DNA of 51,477 nt from Candidatus Berkelbacteria bacterium. Lineage in GTDB: Bacteria; Patescibacteriota; UBA1384; XYA2-FULL-43-10; CAINNR01. The stretch lies in contig JAPLVH010000014.1 in NCBI GenBank assembly GCA_026397205.1, positions 1-51,477 on the forward strand. The letters are read 5' to 3'. Positions within the stretch are counted from its first letter, which is position 1. Each line of letters starts with the position of its first letter. Below the pieces are notes generated by a model, which saw nothing but the letters and a program-made list of their open reading frames with translations, was not told the origin of the DNA and searched no databases. Of this stretch, positions 11,461 to 47,604 are shown one piece after another. Made by a program: the position numbers and the translations under genes.

Positions 11461-11506
11461 CTTCCTTTTATTCTTCCTACTATATAGTATATCACTTCCC
11501 TGATTG

Positions 11507-11535
11507 TTGACAAATTATTCCAGCTTTGATATTCT
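11507..11535 (+). promoter_or_regulatory. sigma70-like promoter TTGACA-17-TATTCT (module A; homologous to 12967..12995)
   Basis: Read directly. The -35 overlaps the TTGTCA -35 of the divergent ftsK promoter. Confidence 0.6.
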
Positions 11536-11567
11536 GAAAATGCGGTTATCAACGGAGGTGACCAGTG

Positions 11568-11753
11568 ATGTGGATTGATTCGGCAGAATTACCATTTTTT
11601 TCTACAGAAGAAGCTCTCGTCGAACATTTGATCGCTAATCATCCAGTCGAAAATGCCAATGTAATTATTCAAGCGTGTATCGAATATGGAATGTTTGAAC
11701 ATTCAGCCGAAGAATGGCTAGAAATCGTTTACAAAATTCAAACAGAATTCTAA
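11568..11753 (+). CDS. small acidic hypothetical protein (61 aa), orphan cassette A
   Basis: GGAGG lies 9 nt before the ATG. Terminator at 11761..11784. Confidence 0.55.
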   Translation: MWIDSAELPFFSTEEALVEHLIANHPVENANVIIQACIEYGMFEHSAEEWLEIVYKIQTEF

Positions 11754-12948: not shown

Positions 12949-12966
12949 GGAAAATGATACGCCCCG

Positions 12967-12995
12967 TTAACAAATACTTCCGGCTTTGGTATTCT
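12967..12995 (+). promoter_or_regulatory. promoter-like TTAACA-17-TATTCT (module B)
   Basis: 37 of 45 aligned positions are identical to module A, counting from the base before the -35 (11506 vs 12966). Confidence 0.5.
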
Positions 12996-13032
12996 CTAAA
13001 TGCAGTTATCGCGCTTGAGAGGTGAAGAAGAA

Positions 13033-13698
13033 ATGCTCGGATATGAACACTTCTATACGTACAGTGAACGCTGGAAACCTCTTTTTGAAGAATTTCCAGA
13101 ACTCAATCTCGAACAAGGAGTTTGCTGGTTTGCTTGCCTTTCAATGCTGTTAAATTCCGTGTCGACAAAACCGACGCAAGATTTGTACGACGCAGCCAAA
13201 CTCCTCGCCGCAAAAGTATTTCCCGAAGGGCTAGAAAATCTGCTCAATCTGCATAAAACAATGATGTTAATACGGCCGACAGCAAATGAACAGACACAAA
13301 TTGTCGTCGATTATCTATGCCAGTTCCACACCGGGATTAAAGCCGTTCTTTACATGATGCCCTTGATGAAAATCGATTGCTGGTGTTTCAGGAAAGATCA
13401 AAACCAATCGGATTTATTAGATTTTATGCTAGACCAATGTTCTGGCCGCTACAATTTGTTGCTAACATTCCAAGTCAACAGCGATGATGACACTTGCGCT
13501 AGCGGCGGCCATGTCATCTATTTTGATTCAAGCAACGCTCAAGGTCAGCAAATTACGTTGTCTGACCCCAATTATTCTGATCCGCTGTTATTCGACAGAC
13601 AAAGATTCACTAAGTGGCTAAATGAGGAAAACCCATACACAAGAGGTAGGAGAATAAAATTTGGCGGTTATGTTTACGGCTTCAAAATCGATAAATAG
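13033..13698 (+). CDS. papain-fold (C39-like) cysteine peptidase candidate, orphan cassette B
   Basis: Candidate triad: QGVCWFACLSML (Cys), GGHVIYFDS (His) and LSDPN (Asp). The 13033 ATG follows GAGAGGTGAAG. The listed 13000 start lies inside the conserved leader. Confidence 0.6.
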   Translation: MLGYEHFYTYSERWKPLFEEFPELNLEQGVCWFACLSMLLNSVSTKPTQDLYDAAKLLAAKVFPEGLENLLNLHKTMMLIRPTANEQTQIVVDYLCQFHTGIKAVLYMMPLMKIDCWCFRKDQNQSDLLDFMLDQCSGRYNLLLTFQVNSDDDTCASGGHVIYFDSSNAQGQQITLSDPNYSDPLLFDRQRFTKWLNEENPYTRGRRIKFGGYVYGFKIDK

Positions 13699-16659: not shown

Positions 16660-16780
16660 AGAAAATGCTTTTTGAAAGAGATCAATTTCGATTGGTTATT
16701 TATAGTTTAGCAAATCCCTTGATTTTTGTCAATAGATGTGGTAAATTTTGTTTGTCGCTATTCCGAGGAGGTGTTGGCAG

Positions 16781-17323
16781 ATGCACAGTCAGCTGAATTT
16801 GGCACTAACAATCTTTGCAATTCTGATTGTTCTACCGATTTGTATCAAAGATGTTGCTCGCTGGCTGAAGATCAGAGAAATCAGAATTGAACTTAAGAGT
16901 GCTTCGGCTGTATATCTGCCGTTCAGGGGCCGGATAGAGAAAAAACCGGAAATCCTGATCGTCGGTTGCCACCCGTCAATCTGGCGGCTGCTCGGCGAAA
17001 TTGGCGGACAAGTTTTGATTGTAATCGGAATTGATGGCACAAAAGTACTTGAATGTTTCCAAATTGATCGCCGGAGTAATAGCATTATTAACCGAGACGA
17101 CACCGTTGTTGCCGACGACAATAATAGCTCGGCAATTATGGTTCCCGACATTCATGGCGCCAGAATCTTCCTGCTGACAAGTCAGCCACCGACAAAGATT
17201 GACTTCATTTATCTGATGATCGGAAAAATCAAATTGCCGGAAATTCGGATTGCAGCCGGAGAACCAACACACATTAGACCTCAAAATTCACAAGTCAAGA
17301 ATCTTGCGGCTGAAATTTCCTAG
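16781..17323 (+). CDS. membrane-anchored hypothetical protein, orphan cassette
   Basis: GAGGAGGTG lies 7 nt before the ATG at 16781. N-terminal TM helix (LALTIFAILIVLPICI). Terminator GCGGACAA-CC-TTGTCCGC + T7. Confidence 0.6.
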   Translation: MHSQLNLALTIFAILIVLPICIKDVARWLKIREIRIELKSASAVYLPFRGRIEKKPEILIVGCHPSIWRLLGEIGGQVLIVIGIDGTKVLECFQIDRRSNSIINRDDTVVADDNNSSAIMVPDIHGARIFLLTSQPPTKIDFIYLMIGKIKLPEIRIAAGEPTHIRPQNSQVKNLAAEIS

Positions 17324-21228: not shown

Positions 21229-21331
21229 TTTTATTTCCTTTTGACTTTCAACTATTTAACTATTGACTGCCGACTTTTTTCTATCGACTCTTTTGATTGT
21301 AGCAAACTATTTTTAAAAAAACAAGCCCCCG

Positions 21332-21787
21332 TTATTTGGGAGCTCTAAGATCGGGATCGATAATAAAAATGTTGTGGTCAAAACCAATTGCTTCCAGAGT
21401 TTCCGTGGTATATTTTCCCCAGAATTTGTCCCACTGATCAAAATTTACATCATGATTCTCCATCGACCTAAGGCAATATTGTGCCCTTTCTTCATTGAGA
21501 AAAAGCCCAACAATCGGCGAAGTTTTGCCTCCGTGAAAATTGGTGCTACACATCCCAGCCGGGGCAATTCTGAAACCAGAAATAATGTCAGGAAAATAGC
21601 GAATCAATCCGTAATTGGTTATCCCAATTTTTGTTCCGCGATTGAGACGCATTCCAACCGGAATTTCTTCGTTAAAAAGACCAGCAATTTTTTCCACAAT
21701 CGGTTCATTCGGATCATCAGAATTTTCAGTAGCGCGATAAAGCGACTTTCCGGTTGTGACAGCAAAAAACTCGATCTTGCCAGCCAT
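21332..21787 (-). CDS. hypothetical protein, orphan cassette (start MAGKIEFF)
   Basis: GAGGAGG lies 8 nt before the ATG at 21787. Shares promoter/leader module P1. The terminator AGCTCCC..GGGGGCT + T7 overlaps the stop. Confidence 0.6.
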   Translation of the reverse strand: MAGKIEFFAVTTGKSLYRATENSDDPNEPIVEKIAGLFNEEIPVGMRLNRGTKIGITNYGLIRYFPDIISGFRIAPAGMCSTNFHGGKTSPIVGLFLNEERAQYCLRSMENHDVNFDQWDKFWGKYTTETLEAIGFDHNIFIIDPDLRAPK

Positions 21788-21860
21788 TTCGTCAACCTCC
21801 TCGGCGGATTGGTGCGACACATACTATATAGTATATAACAAATTCTGGTTTGAAATGCAA
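21788..21860 (-). promoter_or_regulatory. promoter/leader module P1 (TTGCAT-17-TATATA ... GTCGCACCAATCCGCCGAGGAGGTTGA)
   Basis: Near-identical blocks are shared with 22624..22689. Confidence 0.6.
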
Positions 21861-21903
21861 GCGTTATAAAAAAACCGGCACAAAACGCGCCGGCGGGATG
21901 ATA

Positions 21904-22623
21904 TTATTTTCTTAAAGTTCTTAGCGCGAAACTCATATCTGCACCTTTTCGACAAAGAATTTCAGACGCCTGTTTGACGTCATCGTTATCAAGGTCGATG
22001 AAATAACTAAGCGCTGATTTTCCAAATCTGTCTGCTTGGTCAATTCTAGCACCGTTTTCCAAAAGTAAATCAAGGATTTCTGGATTTCCGGTTCGAATTG
22101 CATGTTGCGTCGCGAAGAAAATTGGTTGGTGATCGGGACCAATTCTGGCACCTTTAGCAATTAACAGTTTTGTGATTTCAATATGGCCGAAAGCAATGGC
22201 CAAATGCAAAGCATCGTTTATGGCCAATGAATCGTATGAAAATTGTAGTAGAAAATCAACAACTTCCAAATGTCCATTTCGCGACGATTTTTGTAGTGGC
22301 GTCTCGCCAATACCGTCGCAAATATTAGGGCTGACATTTCTGAAAATGTGCCATTTTACTCTTCCCAAGTTTCCTTCACTGGCGGCGATGTGAATTTTGT
22401 GCGTTTTCTTTGCCATCAATTTATCAACGCTTTTGTACTCTGGAAATTCTGCGTCCAAATATGTCATTGACGCGCCCGGCATTGGATAAGTTGTCCCGGC
22501 TTCGAGCTTCACCATTTTTGTATTGTGGAGAATATTTGCTCGCCTCGATGATTCATCTGGACCAAATTGCCAATCATAAAACGAAAAAGCTTTCGGCATC
22601 GGTGCCACTGCTCCATCCGACAT
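21904..22623 (-). CDS. ankyrin-repeat protein
   Basis: Repeats of the G.TPL..A...GH.E.V..LL type (GETPLQKSSRNGHLEVVDFLL, ALHLAIAFGHIEITKLLI, NPEILDLLLENGARID). Confidence 0.75.
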   Translation of the reverse strand: MSDGAVAPMPKAFSFYDWQFGPDESSRRANILHNTKMVKLEAGTTYPMPGASMTYLDAEFPEYKSVDKLMAKKTHKIHIAASEGNLGRVKWHIFRNVSPNICDGIGETPLQKSSRNGHLEVVDFLLQFSYDSLAINDALHLAIAFGHIEITKLLIAKGARIGPDHQPIFFATQHAIRTGNPEILDLLLENGARIDQADRFGKSALSYFIDLDNDDVKQASEILCRKGADMSFALRTLRK

Positions 22624-22689
22624 GATTCAACCTCCTCGGCGGATTGATGCGACTAAATAATATATATCAATTTCTGTTTTGAAATGCAA
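22624..22689 (-). promoter_or_regulatory. promoter/leader module P2 (TTGCAT-17-TATATA ... GTCGCATCAATCCGCCGAGGAGGTTGA)
   Basis: Paralogous to module P1. Confidence 0.6.
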
Positions 22690-22696
22690 TTTTTGT

Positions 22697-22725
22697 TTGA
22701 CTTTTGGATTTCAAGCTGATACGAT
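22697..22725 (+). promoter_or_regulatory. sigma70-like promoter TTGACT-17-TACGAT
   Basis: Read directly. It is back-to-back with module P2. Confidence 0.55.
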
Positions 22726-22758
22726 TTCTTCGAAATCCCAACCTCGGAGGTGGAGACG

Positions 22759-23085
22759 ATGTATGAACATTCGATTGCCGAAATCCGCCGTCAGATTTTC
22801 GAAATAAAGCCGGACGCAATTCCTGTCGATCATTCTGAAGAATTAAATCGAGGCGGAAATCTCGATTTATTCAAAATGTTTTCTTATTTACTTTTCATGT
22901 GTAATCGACTGGAAACCATGATCGCTCCTGACCAAGCCAGCCGCTGGATTGGCTGGATTTACAGCAAAATGGAAACTTATTTCCCGTCAAAGTGGAAGCT
23001 AGAAAACATTCGTGACTACGCCAGAGCCGACGCACCAGAAGTTAAACAACAAACAATTCATTGGGTTCAGTCCCAAACTTCCTAA
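22759..23085 (+). CDS. hypothetical helical protein, orphan cassette
   Basis: GGAGG lies 8 nt before the ATG. Terminator CCGCAACC..GGTTAGCGG + T7. ASRWIGWIYSKM...ENIRDYAR weakly recalls phage dATP/dGTP pyrophosphohydrolase-like (DUF550) helices, from memory only. Confidence 0.55.
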   Translation: MYEHSIAEIRRQIFEIKPDAIPVDHSEELNRGGNLDLFKMFSYLLFMCNRLETMIAPDQASRWIGWIYSKMETYFPSKWKLENIRDYARADAPEVKQQTIHWVQSQTS

Positions 23086-29306: not shown

Positions 29307-30605
29307 TTAAACTTTCTTTGTTTCGTCCCAATTGTCACCGATTCCAACTTCAACTTCTGTTGGCACCGAAAGTTTGACGACATTTTCCATCGTCTCTTTC
29401 ATAATTTTTGCGACACTCTCCGCATCTTTTACCGGCGCTTCGACAATAACCTCATCATGAACAGTCAAAATAATTTTTACTCCACCATTTTGACTTTTGA
29501 TTTTTGATTTTTGATTTAAAACTTGCATTTGATCCGCCAGGCGGATCAAGGCAAGTTTCAGTATCTCCGCCGCTGTTCCCTGCACCGGCGTGTTTATCGC
29601 CATTCTCTGTGCCGATTCCGATTTTATTCGGTCGGCCGAATTTATCTCCGGCAGTTTCCGCTGAAATCCAAACAGCGTTTCGACATAACCTAATTTTTTG
29701 GCTTGTGTAATCTGCTCCTCGCAATATTTTTTAATGCCGCCGTGAACGGCAAAATAGCGGAAAATATATTCCGCCGCCGATTCGCGGGCGATGCCCAAAG
29801 TTTGCGACAAACCGTATGGGCTGATGCCGTAAATGACTCCAAAGTTGACGGTTTTCGCCAGTCGCCGCTGATCGTTGGTGATTTTTTCAATCGGCACGCG
29901 AAATAATTCTGATGCTGTTCGCGAATGAATGTCAACGCCAGAGCTGAATGCTTCAACCATCGCCTTGTCGCCAGACAAACAAGCAACGACTCGGAGTTCG
30001 ATTTGCGAATAATCGGCCGAAATTAATTTACAATTTTTTTCGGCAATAAAAGCTCGGCGAATTTCCGGTCCGAAATCGCCTTTGATTGGGATATTTTGCA
30101 AATTCGGATTTGCCGATGTCAGCCGGCCGGTTCGGGTGTCGGTACCGAAATGGGTGTGAAGCCGAAAATTTTCGTCAACGATTTTCGGTAGCGGCTCTAA
30201 ATATGTTGACACTAATTTTGAAAGTTCGCGATATTCCAAAATTTTGCCGATGATCGGATTTCCGCCACGGAGTTTTTCCAGCTCCGACGCGCCAGTGGAA
30301 AATCCCGACTTTGTTCGCTTGAGTTCGCCGGTTGGCAATTTCATTTTGGTGAATAATATTTTCGCCAATTGCGTCGGCGACGCGACATTGAATTCCTCAC
30401 CAGCATTTTTCTGAATTTCCTTCCTTAACTTTTCACTTTTAACTTTTAACTTTTCACTAAGTCGCTTAAGCGACTTGACATCAACTTTTATTCCGACATC
30501 CTCGATCAACCTTAAAACCGGCGCCAATTTCTTGTCAATTTCCTCCGATTTAATTCTCGGAATTTTACAACCCAATTTTTCCGCCCGCGCTAAAATATTT
30601 TTCAT
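29307..30605 (-). CDS. polA: DNA polymerase I, polymerase domain only (no 3'-5' exonuclease domain)
   Basis: 432 aa with the family A motifs SADYSQIELRV, RRLAKTVNFGVIYG and VHDEVIVE. Confidence 0.9.
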   Translation of the reverse strand: MKNILARAEKLGCKIPRIKSEEIDKKLAPVLRLIEDVGIKVDVKSLKRLSEKLKVKSEKLRKEIQKNAGEEFNVASPTQLAKILFTKMKLPTGELKRTKSGFSTGASELEKLRGGNPIIGKILEYRELSKLVSTYLEPLPKIVDENFRLHTHFGTDTRTGRLTSANPNLQNIPIKGDFGPEIRRAFIAEKNCKLISADYSQIELRVVACLSGDKAMVEAFSSGVDIHSRTASELFRVPIEKITNDQRRLAKTVNFGVIYGISPYGLSQTLGIARESAAEYIFRYFAVHGGIKKYCEEQITQAKKLGYVETLFGFQRKLPEINSADRIKSESAQRMAINTPVQGTAAEILKLALIRLADQMQVLNQKSKIKSQNGGVKIILTVHDEVIVEAPVKDAESVAKIMKETMENVVKLSVPTEVEVGIGDNWDETKKV

Positions 30606-30639: not shown

Positions 30640-31686
30640 TTATAAAAGTTTTAGTTGTTCGTCTTTCTTTGGAATTTCTGATTTTGAATTTGTTTGTGAT
30701 TTGCCCACAGGGTCACTTCGTAGATTTCTTGTGATTTGCGATTTTTCGCCCTCAAATCTCCGGAGGAGCGATTGAAATCCCAACTCCTCAAAAAGTTCCG
30801 TCAGTTTGATTTTATCATACTCGCCGAAACGACATTTTTCCAGATCAAAATCAATCGGCACATCACGATAAATCGTCGCCAACTTCTGCGACATAAAAGC
30901 CTGATCACGATTCTCAATCAATAAATTTAATATTCTCGGTTTTATTTCTTTTTGATTTTCATCTTTGTCATTTTGATCTTTAATATTTGATTTTTGATCT
31001 ATATACGCATATAACTTTTCAAGCGAATCAAACTTCTGAATTAAATCTGTCGCCGTTTTACTGCCGATTCCCGGAACACCGGGAATATTGTCCGAAGCAT
31101 CGCCGGCCAGCGCTTTTAGATCAATAAAATCAGCCGGATCCAGATTATACTCTCGTTTGATTGTGTCGTGATCAACAATTTGGAGTTGACTCAAACCCTT
31201 GCGCAAACTATAAACTTTAACATTGCCATTTATCAGCTGATAAATATCCTTATCCCCGCTTACTATATATATGTCAATTCCGCTATTTTTCACTTTTAAT
31301 TTTTCACTTTTAATTTTCTCGGCAATTGTGCCGAGAATATCATCGGCCTCAAAAGTTTCCTTTTCGTAAATCGGAATTCCCATCGTCTCAACGATTTGTT
31401 TGACTCGGGGAATTTGATCGTAAAGTTCCTGATCGGCCTTAACTCGCGTCGCTTTGTAATCGGCGAACTCTTTGTGGCGAAAAGTCGGCCCGGCCAAATC
31501 GAACGAGCAAGCGATAAATTCCGGCTTCAAATCCTCCAAAACTTTAATCAGCGTGGTTGTAAAACCGTAAGTCGCGTTCGTCGGCTCGCCAGCACGCGTC
31601 GTCATCGTTTTCGGCAAAGCGTGATACGCCCGATGAATTATCGCATTACCATCAATCAAGACCAGTTTTTGATTTTCCTCTGTCAT
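30640..31686 (-). CDS. 5'-3' exonuclease (Pol I N-terminal FEN-like domain) as a separate gene
   Basis: LIDGNAIIHRAYHAL, SGDKDIYQL and an H3TH region (GDASDNIPGVPGIGSKTA). The C-terminal tail is repeat-derived (RSDPVGKSQTNSKSEIPKK). Confidence 0.9.
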   Translation of the reverse strand: MTEENQKLVLIDGNAIIHRAYHALPKTMTTRAGEPTNATYGFTTTLIKVLEDLKPEFIACSFDLAGPTFRHKEFADYKATRVKADQELYDQIPRVKQIVETMGIPIYEKETFEADDILGTIAEKIKSEKLKVKNSGIDIYIVSGDKDIYQLINGNVKVYSLRKGLSQLQIVDHDTIKREYNLDPADFIDLKALAGDASDNIPGVPGIGSKTATDLIQKFDSLEKLYAYIDQKSNIKDQNDKDENQKEIKPRILNLLIENRDQAFMSQKLATIYRDVPIDFDLEKCRFGEYDKIKLTELFEELGFQSLLRRFEGEKSQITRNLRSDPVGKSQTNSKSEIPKKDEQLKLL

Positions 31687-37645: not shown

Positions 37646-38206
37646 ATGCTTTCAATCACCAATCTCAAACTTGGGACAAAAATTTCTTTGGATGGCGAAC
37701 CGTTCGTCGTCACTTTTTCCGAACACTCAAAACAGGGCCGCAGCGGCGCGGTGATGCGAACGCGGCTTAAAAGTTTGATCTCTGGCGCGACAATTGCCAA
37801 AACATTTCAGGGCGCCGACAAAATTGATGAGGCCGAACTGTCGCATAAAACCGCCCAGTTTTTATATTTTGATAGCCAAGCGGCGTATTTCATGGACTCG
37901 GAAAATTTTGAGCAGTTTGAAATTCCGACTCTAAAAATTGCCGACCAAATTGATTATCTGACCGAAAACGCACCGGTCGAAATACTCTACAATGATGACC
38001 GGCCGATAAGCATTGAACTCCCGATCAAAATGACATTTACGATAATTTCCACGCCTCCGGGGGTCCGTGGAAACTCCGCCGGCACCGTGACCAAAATGGC
38101 AGAGATCAACACCGGCGGCCAAATTGCCGTTCCCCTTTTCATCAAGGAAGGCGACAAAATTGTCGTTGACACCAGGGATGGAAAATATGTGGAACGGGAA
38201 AATTAA
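37646..38206 (+). CDS. efp: elongation factor P
   Basis: Three-domain EF-P pattern (NLKLGTKISLDGEPFVV, ..KPGKG-like SKQGRSGAV). The ATG at 37646 is preferred over the listed TTG at 37637. Confidence 0.88.
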   Translation: MLSITNLKLGTKISLDGEPFVVTFSEHSKQGRSGAVMRTRLKSLISGATIAKTFQGADKIDEAELSHKTAQFLYFDSQAAYFMDSENFEQFEIPTLKIADQIDYLTENAPVEILYNDDRPISIELPIKMTFTIISTPPGVRGNSAGTVTKMAEINTGGQIAVPLFIKEGDKIVVDTRDGKYVEREN

Positions 38207-38315
38207 AAATCAAATATTAAAAATTAAAATGATAGATCAAAAAGTTTTAAATCCCGGCACGGAGTGCCGACCAACATTTTGACTTTTTATTTTTGATTTT
38301 TGATATACTTGGTTT

Positions 38316-45765: not shown

Positions 45766-47604
45766 CTATCCAGCTGGTGGCATAGCCGCCACTGGATCCG
45801 CCGGCGGTCCAACCTGCCACTGCTCCGGCAAGGCAACATAATGCGAAAGAAAATCGGTTGACTGTAAGATTGTGCCACTCAAAATAACCTGGTAGTGAAA
45901 TTTCGCCGAAGCACCTTGATGGGCGTGAGAAATTAAATTTCGCGTTCCCGCCGGCAGTGTCGGATCCAAGGTCTCAACCGGCGATGGCGGTTCGACATAA
46001 TCAAAACCGCTTGCCGCCCCGATCGTTATCTGCCGATCATCTTTAGTGCCATAAAATTCAAAAGTTAATTTTGTCCCGACGATGACCGACTGAATGAAAA
46101 TGTAACTCGAGTAGTTGTTGACAAATTTGAAATCCGGCGACGGATCGTAAATTGTTGCGTCCATGCCGATCGGCGGCTCATAATAGGAAACGCGATAAGA
46201 GTGATTTTGCCGCTCGGTAATTTTCATTCCGGCGTTAAGCGCCGCCCGAAAAAGTGTCGTCGAAACCTGACAGAGTCCGCCGCCGTAATCCGGCACGGTC
46301 TTGTTGTCTTTGATCACCAGCTCCGGCAAATATCCGGTTGAGGCGTTGATTTTGCCCAAATGCCCAAGTGTCGAAAACTCCTCGCCCGGTTTGAGCAAAG
46401 TTCCATTGATCGCTGTCGCGCCAACGCCGATGTTGTGAATCCGATTTGCCGGCGACTTGACAAAATTTGTCGTGCCACTGGCGACCAATTCGGTCAAGCC
46501 GTAAGATTTCAATTTTGTTGAATCAATTTCCGGCGCAATTTGATCAACTTTTAGAGTAATTAATGGTAGTTGTGTTTGATCAATCCGGTCGAGAATCGCC
46601 GCCGAAATTGTTGCTGTCGCCGCCTCACGATCCAACTTGGCGCCATTTTGCGACTGGTTGGAAACAGCAACCTGGCCGTTAACGACGGTCAAAACGGCGT
46701 TGCCGGCTGGTGTGTCAACCGCGGCGGCAAAACCGGCGACCTGCTTTTGGACTTGGTCGGGCAGAATATAAATCTCCAGCTCCTTGCCCTTCGGTCGCGA
46801 ACCGATCAACCCGGCAATCGAATCAACATCAAGTGTGAAATTTTTGCTGTTGGCGGCCAATGCCAAATTTCCCCCAGCCAAAATCCGGTTGGCGTCGACC
46901 AAACTTTTGTTGGCATTCTCCTCGGTAATCTGCGGCGGATATTTTTCGGTCTTAAAATCAACTTCCGCCATTTTGATTTTTGATCTTTGATCTTTGATTT
47001 CGTCAATCAAGTTTCCTTGATTGACGCGATTCCCTTCCTGCTTCTCGGTTGCTAATGTAAATTTCCCGCCACCGGCATACGCAAGCGAAAAATCCTTTTC
47101 CGGAATATCAATTCCGGCGGCAATCTCGGCAATTTTCGTCGCCAACTTATCGGCGCTAATGGAATAATCGGCGTCAACTTGATATTTGAACAACAAAGTT
47201 TTTGCCTGCTGATAAAAACTTATCAGCGGATTTTTCGCTCGGCCGACAGCAAAAACCATGTTGGCGGTTTCTTCAACATTATATTTCAAATCAATGTCGG
47301 AATTTTTTATTGTAAATGGCTTCGAATCGCCGGACTCCGGTTGATATTTTAGATTGATGTCAGCGGCTTCGGCTAACGATAATATCGGCGTCAAGATTTC
47401 TGTAACTTGTTCGTGACTTTTACCGCCGACATTTGCCGAGCCGACATAAATATTTCGATAAGTCGTTTTGCCGTAAGCCAAGGAATAAATTCCCAAAATT
47501 ATCAAAATAAAAACCAAAAAACTACCGACAAAAATTGTCGGCCATTTGATTTTCTTCCACAGGCGAATCCTTTTGGACTCTTGTTTTTCCTTTTTCTGCG
47601 CCAC
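45766..47604 (-). CDS. VanW-family protein with an N-terminal membrane anchor
   Basis: YGGGLCQVSTTLFRAALNAG...RQNHSYRVSYY is the VanW core. Confidence 0.8.
   Translation of the reverse strand: MAQKKEKQESKRIRLWKKIKWPTIFVGSFLVFILIILGIYSLAYGKTTYRNIYVGSANVGGKSHEQVTEILTPILSLAEAADINLKYQPESGDSKPFTIKNSDIDLKYNVEETANMVFAVGRAKNPLISFYQQAKTLLFKYQVDADYSISADKLATKIAEIAAGIDIPEKDFSLAYAGGGKFTLATEKQEGNRVNQGNLIDEIKDQRSKIKMAEVDFKTEKYPPQITEENANKSLVDANRILAGGNLALAANSKNFTLDVDSIAGLIGSRPKGKELEIYILPDQVQKQVAGFAAAVDTPAGNAVLTVVNGQVAVSNQSQNGAKLDREAATATISAAILDRIDQTQLPLITLKVDQIAPEIDSTKLKSYGLTELVASGTTNFVKSPANRIHNIGVGATAINGTLLKPGEEFSTLGHLGKINASTGYLPELVIKDNKTVPDYGGGLCQVSTTLFRAALNAGMKITERQNHSYRVSYYEPPIGMDATIYDPSPDFKFVNNYSSYIFIQSVIVGTKLTFEFYGTKDDRQITIGAASGFDYVEPPSPVETLDPTLPAGTRNLISHAHQGASAKFHYQVILSGTILQSTDFLSHYVALPEQWQVGPPADPVAAMPPAG

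Follow-up and report, generated by a model that had tools for sequence, protein, structure and literature searches.

Correia elements, ERIC sequences, and REPIN/REP sequences are dispersed non-coding repeats that are able to supply promoters to the DNA downstream of them. A second kind of system, the putative mobile promoters (PMPs), was described by Matus-Garcia, Nijveen and van Passel (2012, Nucleic Acids Res 40:10032) and by Nijveen et al. (2012, PMC3575422). More than 4000 PMP families have been reported, most of which are pairs with about 92% identity located before non-paralogous genes, and the way in which they move is unknown (PMC3575422). The PMP survey covered the region from -150 to -50 relative to the start codon and used a criterion of at least 80% identity over at least 50 nt (Matus-Garcia et al. 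2012). In T4-type phages, promoter-early stem-loop (PeSL) cassettes have been described (Arbiol et al. 2010, PMC2839356; Comeau et al. 2014, PMC4122927).

Here, we analyzed two upstream regions of a Candidatus Berkelbacteria genome (822 kb, 29 contigs, 95% complete, 42% G+C), in which nearly the same promoter-like and leader sequence precedes two unrelated genes. The window, i.e., the whole stretch of DNA that was analyzed (51,477 nt), is contig 29 of this genome. The pair is a real, local, and species-specific case of promoter reuse, a kind of event that has already been described in bacteria.

Genes in the Variable Gap between the DHH Gene and rpsO

Read along the minus strand, the gene order is a DHH/DHHA1 phosphoesterase gene (nrnA-like), a gene for a 108-amino acid (aa) protein on the opposite strand, an ankyrin-repeat gene, an orphan gene, rpsO, and pnp. 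The following features were located between the DHH gene and rpsO:

22759..23085, plus strand: 108-aa gene, the third gene of the islet, divergent from module copy A
22697..22725, plus strand: strong promoter-like site of the 108-aa gene, TTGACT-17-TGATACGAT, 19.9 bits
21904..22623, minus strand: ankyrin-repeat protein gene, 239 aa, repeats at about residues 77–230
21864..21894, minus strand: predicted intrinsic terminator of the ankyrin gene, 9-bp stem with six G-C pairs and a T-run, adjoining the 5' side of module copy B
21332..21787, minus strand: orphan gene, 151 aa, beginning at ATG 21787
21313..21345, minus strand: predicted intrinsic terminator of the orphan gene, 8-bp stem and a T-run

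The DHH gene and rpsO are also neighbors in nine other genomes of the family, where the gap can be as short as about 100 nt or as long as about 1.3 kb and differs in content; here it measures 1.9 kb. This variability across the family indicates that the gap is a variable site and that the three islet genes are lineage-specific. Within the order, the ankyrin and orphan genes are sporadic: matches to the orphan were detected in 2 of 43 other genomes and matches to the ankyrin gene in 1 of 43. The G+C content of the islet (0.41–0.42) equals the genome average (0.42) and thus gives no compositional sign of recent import. A scan of the three islet genes and of four flanking genes gave no match to recombinase families. 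Five other runs yielded contigs of the same species, all of them 100% identical, and no strain variant that lacks or swaps a unit was found among these. A search for closer relatives revealed no intermediate genomes, the best homolog of the DHH protein having 77% identity.

The first 76 residues of the ankyrin protein matched no family. This protein has no close homolog, the highest identity being 32%, through the repeats alone. For the orphan, no match was found in Pfam, PHROG, NCBIfam, or PADLOC; its predicted fold (pLDDT 76) matched nothing in the PDB at E <= 0.001, and TM was below 0.5 in every Atlas row. Its family consists of eight distant homologs with 36–45% identity, all of which begin 2–5 residues before a conserved EFFAVT motif. 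A start at GTG 21820, giving 162 aa, had been assumed when the sequence alone was read. This codon sits inside the leader, and a strong Shine–Dalgarno (SD) sequence lies 8 nt before ATG 21787. Considering this SD and the starts of the homologs near EFFAVT, we corrected the orphan to 151 aa. As had been claimed, the ankyrin and orphan proteins are unrelated: blastp gave E = 0.84, tblastn gave no meaningful match, and the Smith–Waterman score of the two coding DNAs (13) was at the level of the null (11.9 +/- 1.5). The 108-aa product is predicted with confidence to be an all-helical bundle (pLDDT 94); neither a family nor a PDB match was found, and there was no sign of a helix-turn-helix.

In sequence, the two predicted terminators bear no relation to each other. 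Only copy B has a terminator before it; none was found upstream of copy A. Downstream of the orphan terminator lies a predicted rpsO promoter (TTGTTT-17-TGCTACAAT, 16.6 bits).

RNA data were available as assembled contigs, which cannot show starts, strands, or levels, and RNA libraries can contain DNA. With this reservation, a 151-nt metatranscriptome contig from one RNA library corresponds to 21661–21801 without mismatch and includes the 5' coding part of the orphan and the SD part of its leader. The ankyrin gene had no cover in the contigs of three metatranscriptome runs, which is not evidence of silence. rpsO was covered in three runs, and its contigs all end at 21265–21281, just downstream of TTGTTT-17-TGCTACAAT and of the orphan terminator. 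These ends are a weak hint of a separate rpsO start 3' of that terminator.

Extent and Uniqueness of the Duplicated Module

Local alignment of the two upstream regions delimited two copies of the module:

22689..22627, minus strand: module copy A, 63 nt, before the ankyrin-repeat gene
21860..21792, minus strand: module copy B, 69 nt, before the orphan gene

A module of about 70 nt before both ATGs had been noticed in the sequence-only reading. The duplication was confirmed, as each of the submotifs quoted there occurs twice in the window, at these places, and in 0 of 100 shuffles; the length had to be revised to 63 and 69 nt. The copies share 57 of 63 aligned bases (90%) and differ by one 6-nt indel (82.6% over 69 columns with the indel included), which is located between the -10 element and the leader, the extra 6 nt being in copy B. 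In a self-BLAST of the genome, the pair had E = 1e-7 and was the sole match for the region. The homology has sharp boundaries. It begins at the first T of the -35-like TTGCAT and ends with ..GGTTGA after the SD, 3 nt (A) or 4 nt (B) 5' of the ATG; no similarity between A and B was found by alignment upstream of TTGCAT or inside the coding regions, and the 3' flanks of the two genes could not be aligned. The copies are 829 bp apart and belong to adjacent units in the same orientation. Neither target-site duplication nor microhomology was evident at the junctions.

None of the six substitutions is located in the -35, TG, -10, or SD elements (0/23 vs. 6/40 positions, P = 0.078), nor is the indel. 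The pattern is no more than suggestive.

A genome-wide search, which had been proposed as a check, found two module copies only in the 822-kb genome at <=3 mismatches. No copy was detected in 11 genomes of the family, and exact 20–21-mers of the module had 0 matches in genome and viral contig collections. Four 20-mer matches in metagenome contigs were rejected as chance, being inside higher-GC DNA without promoter or start-codon context. In the DHH–rpsO gaps of relatives and at the loci of the orphan homologs, no module score exceeded those of shuffled controls.

A looser leader pattern, AATCC..CCGAGGAGGT, was also seen at window position 16754, before the 108-aa gene, and at 30484 of contig C8. 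As a leader family, this pattern was discarded, since it is too weak to tell from general A/C-rich leader composition plus an SD. At 16754–16783 (plus strand), the leader GTCGCTATTCCGAGGAGGTGTTGGCAG precedes a 180-aa orphan and has a GTCGC start and the rare CCGAGGAGGT SD context as in the module; judging by these motifs, it may be a diverged third relative of the module or may share its composition only.

The sequence-only reading had named one outcome that would undo its interpretation, namely a module unique to this tandem pair and explained by one local duplication whose coding parts can still be aligned. The module is indeed unique to the pair, but the coding parts are not alignable, and therefore a simple whole-gene tandem duplication does not explain it. 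A related possibility is that the pair is a relic of such a duplication, one coding region having been replaced or having diverged past recognition while the upstream signals were kept. The adjacency and like orientation of the units would agree with this, and tandem mini-genes in another genome (G008, see below) have coding parts that diverged far beyond their flanking signals. However, no residual DNA or protein similarity was found here, even with the non-coding part 90% identical; the proteins are of different length (239 vs. 151 aa); one protein consists largely of ankyrin repeats, whereas the other has a family of its own that aligns from the first residues; and the 3' flanks and terminators are unrelated. 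We regard such a relic as very improbable.

Promoter-like, Leader, and Shine–Dalgarno Elements

The module had been said to cover the -35, the -10, the leader, and the SD, and a promoter-like -35, an extended -10, a short leader, and an SD were recognized in both copies. In copy A, the parts are as follows:

22689-22684, minus strand: TTGCAT, -35-like element of copy A, followed by a 17-nt spacer, the extended -10 TGATATATA, the leader GTCGCATCAATCCGCCGAGGAGGTTGA, and the SD GAGGAGGT

GGAGG ends 7 nt before ATG 22623. Copy B has the same layout, with GGAGG ending 8 nt before ATG 21787.

We trained a promoter model on upstream regions from the genome itself; this yielded TTGACA-17-TGnTAnAAT, and most sites include the TG of the extended -10. 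The best site in both upstream regions was TTGCAT-17-TG(A/T)TATATA, with 8.7 and 7.6 bits, which ranks in the 71st–75th percentile of all upstream regions and in the 93rd–95th percentile of coding controls. The -35 matches at three of six positions, and the -10 lacks the conserved final T. A promoter of the sigma-70 type and of moderate strength is plausible from these scores; we rate it only as moderate because its bits are well below those of the neighboring rpsO (16.6) and 108-aa gene (19.9) promoters in the same model and a generic promoter scanner did not call it.

The 3' end of the 16S rRNA is canonical (..GGATCACCTCCTTTCT). GGAGG precedes 13% of the called genes of the genome, and GAGGAGGT precedes 4 of 1054 genes, two of which are the ankyrin and orphan genes. 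By this sequence measure, the predicted SD of the module is strong to an unusual degree and exceptional in the genome.

A palindrome, ATACTATATAGTAT, at 21821–21834 overlaps the -10 region of copy B. It consists of two opposed TATACT boxes, and a second site in the window (11477–11490) lies over the -10 of a promoter near 11490. With <=1 mismatch, ATACTATATAGTAT occurs at six places in the genome, against a mean of 0.3 (maximum 3) for composition-matched control palindromes, and several copies are downstream of a TTGACA or TTGTCA box.

The promoter-like site of the 108-aa gene and copy A stand back to back, with 7 bp between the two -35 elements. This divergent region (22679–22741) contains the inverted repeats TTGAAATGCAA/TTGGATTTCAA and TTTGGATTTC/GAAATCCCAA, none of which is present in copy B; the first arm is the -35 end of copy A.

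The Leader as a Candidate Regulatory Target

It had further been suggested that an invariant 27-nt leader block could be a shared regulatory target. The block is not strictly invariant, being identical at 26 of 27 positions and differing at one Y position. Selection might have kept the leader and promoter alike for one regulator, such as a small RNA or a protein that binds DNA or RNA. The near identity of the leader and the absence of substitutions from the -35, TG, -10, and SD elements are consistent with this, as are the small gene of unknown function that diverges from copy A and an SD-occluding hairpin (-9.7 kcal/mol) that copy B can form. However, copy A cannot form this hairpin, and the folds of the leader differ between the copies and are no better than those of shuffles (z-scores from -1.6 to +0.6). 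There is no inverted repeat common to both copies and none that spans the module in either region; the two that touch copy A are local and missing from copy B. The search for a complementary small RNA found no antisense stretch >12 nt elsewhere in the genome, and the shorter matches (11–12-mers at about 18 places vs. a rough expectation of 8) are scattered and mostly within genes. Rfam gave no leader match at E <= 1 beyond noise. Five of the six substitutions are in the promoter part and one is in the leader, a difference in conservation that is not significant (Fisher P = 0.23). In addition, the ankyrin gene was not seen together with the orphan in the RNA contigs. The divergent 108-aa protein was considered as the regulator and rejected, as it is predicted to be a helical bundle and matched no family, no PDB entry, and nothing DNA-binding-like.

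As the searches yielded neither a conserved fold or shared palindrome nor an antisense partner or Rfam match, the suggestion of a common regulatory target was not borne out, and we consider such a target unlikely.

Analogous Modules in This Genome and in Other CPR Loci

All 1054 upstream regions of the genome were compared all against all. This revealed 1618 similar pairs, 1607 of which are between non-homologous proteins, in 32 families. The large families (77, 25, 12 members, etc.) consist of intergenic repeats of low complexity, many of them palindromic, that adjoin start codons. The ankyrin/orphan pair is a two-member family of its own among the 32, with no link to the repeat families of the genome in a word-9 self-BLAST. 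The promoter/leader type is represented by a few further small families, ahead of unrelated genes in the same genome.

The intergenic repeats are found in the window at 38196–38315, 29473–29518, 30949–30994, and 46965–47001 and at many sites on other contigs. One family has A-rich/T-rich arms such as TTTTGATTTTTGAT around a CCGGCACGGAGTGCCGG hairpin, and other families are based on AATTCTTAATTCT, AATTAGAATAATTAG, or TTGAAAATTGAAAATT. They run right up to start codons, often without an SD, the largest family being located before 77 functionally unrelated genes.

A leader module with four copies was also observed:

L041:66-175, plus strand: copy of the four-copy leader module
L042:552-661, minus strand: copy of the four-copy leader module
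L043:74-183, plus strand: copy of the four-copy leader module
L044:56-165, plus strand: copy of the four-copy leader module

The four genes behind these copies are unrelated: one is Phd/YefM-like, one encodes a secretion-type ATPase (Pfam T2SSE), and the other two are unknown. The module comprises a long hairpin (GGCCCATCCTTCGTCCGCC..GGCGGACTACGGAGGGC) together with an AT-rich palindrome and an SD with GGAGG. No match to this leader was found in Rfam.

Another pair in the window, 11506–11550 and 12966–13010, shows a 45-nt similarity (37/45). On the plus strand it can be read as a promoter, TTGACA (or TTAACA)-17-TG(A/G)TATTCT, upstream of the plus-strand open reading frames 11565–11753 and 13000–13698, ATG 13000 being inside the repeat. 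From this arrangement, its functional strand may be opposite to that implied when the pair was first noted.

Comparable layouts were detected in other organisms. In genome G008, which belongs to another genus, the DHH–rpsO gap (L034:3186-3845) contains two tandem units of about 340 nt, in each of which a mini-gene of about 59 aa is preceded by a promoter and an SD and followed by a terminator. Between these units, the promoter/SD parts are 84–86% and the terminators 92% identical, vs. 29% over 42 residues for the products. Three loci of orphan homologs contain paired modules:

L008, 2182-2276 and 4318-4412: module of 95 nt, 88% identity, before unrelated genes of 192 and 106 aa
L012 (genome G028), 787-861 and 1408-1482: module of 90 nt, before a membrane protein gene and an orphan homolog
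L009, 1816-1856 and 2224-2264: 41-nt promoter

Altogether, module-framed, unrelated neighboring genes were found in three of four orphan-homolog loci from other organisms, with a different module sequence at each locus. The idea of a recurrent, ready-made expression module therefore has to be divided: this particular sequence recurs nowhere else, whereas in a weak sense the idea holds, as analogous modules of different sequence are present in the same genome and in other CPR loci.

Origin of the Pair

The pair is best explained, in our view with good probability, by the local duplication of about 65 bp that carry an expression signal but not its gene, so that the signal now stands before two unrelated, lineage-specific genes. 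The signal would have been copied locally within the variable DHH–rpsO gap; the mechanism and the direction of the copying we can only infer. Each copy would provide a moderate promoter of the sigma-70 type (a TTGCAT -35, a 17-bp spacer, and an extended -10, TGnTATATA). Transcription is predicted to start about 7 nt past the -10, giving a putative 5' UTR of about 33 nt (A) or about 40 nt (B), and the strong SD GAGGAGGT would lie 7–8 nt ahead of the ATG in both copies. Since each gene has its own predicted terminator, the ankyrin and orphan genes would be independent monocistronic units with like signals for the start of transcription and translation. Promoter activity and equal expression of the two genes are, like the start site, predictions from this arrangement.

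A different explanation is that the module acts as portable homology, through which RecA-type recombination inserts or excises module–gene–terminator units at the DHH–rpsO gap; in that case, the copies would mark where a unit was inserted and would not result from a promoter duplication. Each gene is indeed a self-contained promoter–leader–gene–terminator unit, the first terminator abuts the second promoter, and the site varies across the family. The mini-genes in the gap of G008, whose signals are kept better than their products, and the loci L008 and L012, which are laid out alike with other module sequences, point in the same direction, and PeSL biology offers a precedent (PMC2839356). On the other hand, there are only two module copies; the terminators are unrelated, with none upstream of copy A; and no recombinase family was found among the seven islet and flanking genes scanned. 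No unit is lacking or swapped in the identical contigs of the same species. Neither recombination joints nor mini-circles between the module copies, such as a joint across the 829-bp interval, were seen in the assembled contigs of the runs, and the module is missing from relatives and public collections. We think it improbable that the pair arose in this way.

Among these alternatives to a local duplication of the signal, the whole-gene relic is disfavored; cassette exchange and a shared target are unlikely and unsupported. If the duplication of the signal is accepted, lineage-specific genes in a genome of less than 1 Mb would have been equipped with predicted start signals by the copying of about 65 bp, no gene having been copied. 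The pair is one data point beside the other shared promoter/leader families, the mini-genes of G008, and the orphan-homolog loci.

By analogy with the phage systems, one might suppose that in Patescibacteria short promoter–leader modules serve as portable homology for inserting and exchanging single-gene cassettes at variable sites of the chromosome, a cellular counterpart of PeSLs, the ankyrin/orphan pair being one such footprint. This is hinted at by the tandem mini-cassettes in the DHH–rpsO gap of another genus and by the module-framed genes at three of four orphan-homolog loci; we regard it as doubtful. Should a recombination mechanism, rather than a series of independent accidents, underlie the pattern, it would help account for the way in which CPR bacteria acquire accessory genes and express them in the absence of recognizable mobile elements.

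Comparison with Known Systems

The genome resembles those with Correia, ERIC, or REPIN/REP elements in being rich in dispersed intergenic repeats directly before start codons. The module differs from such elements, having no terminal inverted repeats, only two copies, and no sequence link to the repeats of the genome. It does not belong to the MITE/REP-like families of this genome, as the region matches only its partner. Its leader likewise could not be classed as a structured cis-regulatory RNA (riboswitch, ribosomal-protein leader, or attenuator).

For the reading of the units as exchangeable cassettes, PeSLs are the nearest mechanistic analog. Both involve small orphan genes in a variable region, each with a sigma-70-like promoter and a stem-loop terminator (here predicted), and terminator and promoter abut at copy B. 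However, PeSLs are phage cassettes present in dozens of copies across variable regions, recombination between which yields indels or mini-circles in close relatives, whereas here two copies with non-homologous terminators are found in a cellular chromosome. Moreover, the PeSL composite of a strong sigma-70-like promoter with a conserved stem-loop terminator is incomplete: the promoter is moderate (7.6–8.7 bits), and a terminator stands only before copy B.

PMPs share with the present case very similar upstream DNA before non-paralogous genes of one genome, with no known mobile element attached. The identity of the copies, 57/63 (90%) or 82.6% over 69 columns, is above the threshold of the PMP survey, and the genes are non-paralogous by blastp (E = 0.84) and by a Smith–Waterman score at the null. 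The position is different: the module extends from -66 to -4 (A) and from -73 to -5 (B), with about 17–24 nt inside the -150 to -50 region, so that the -10, the SD, and all of the 5' UTR are part of it, and most of it is outside the survey window. A further difference is that the copies lie next to each other, at a distance of 829 bp, within a variable gap in a CPR genome. Judged by its sequence, the module falls outside the operational definition of PMPs and fits their concept.
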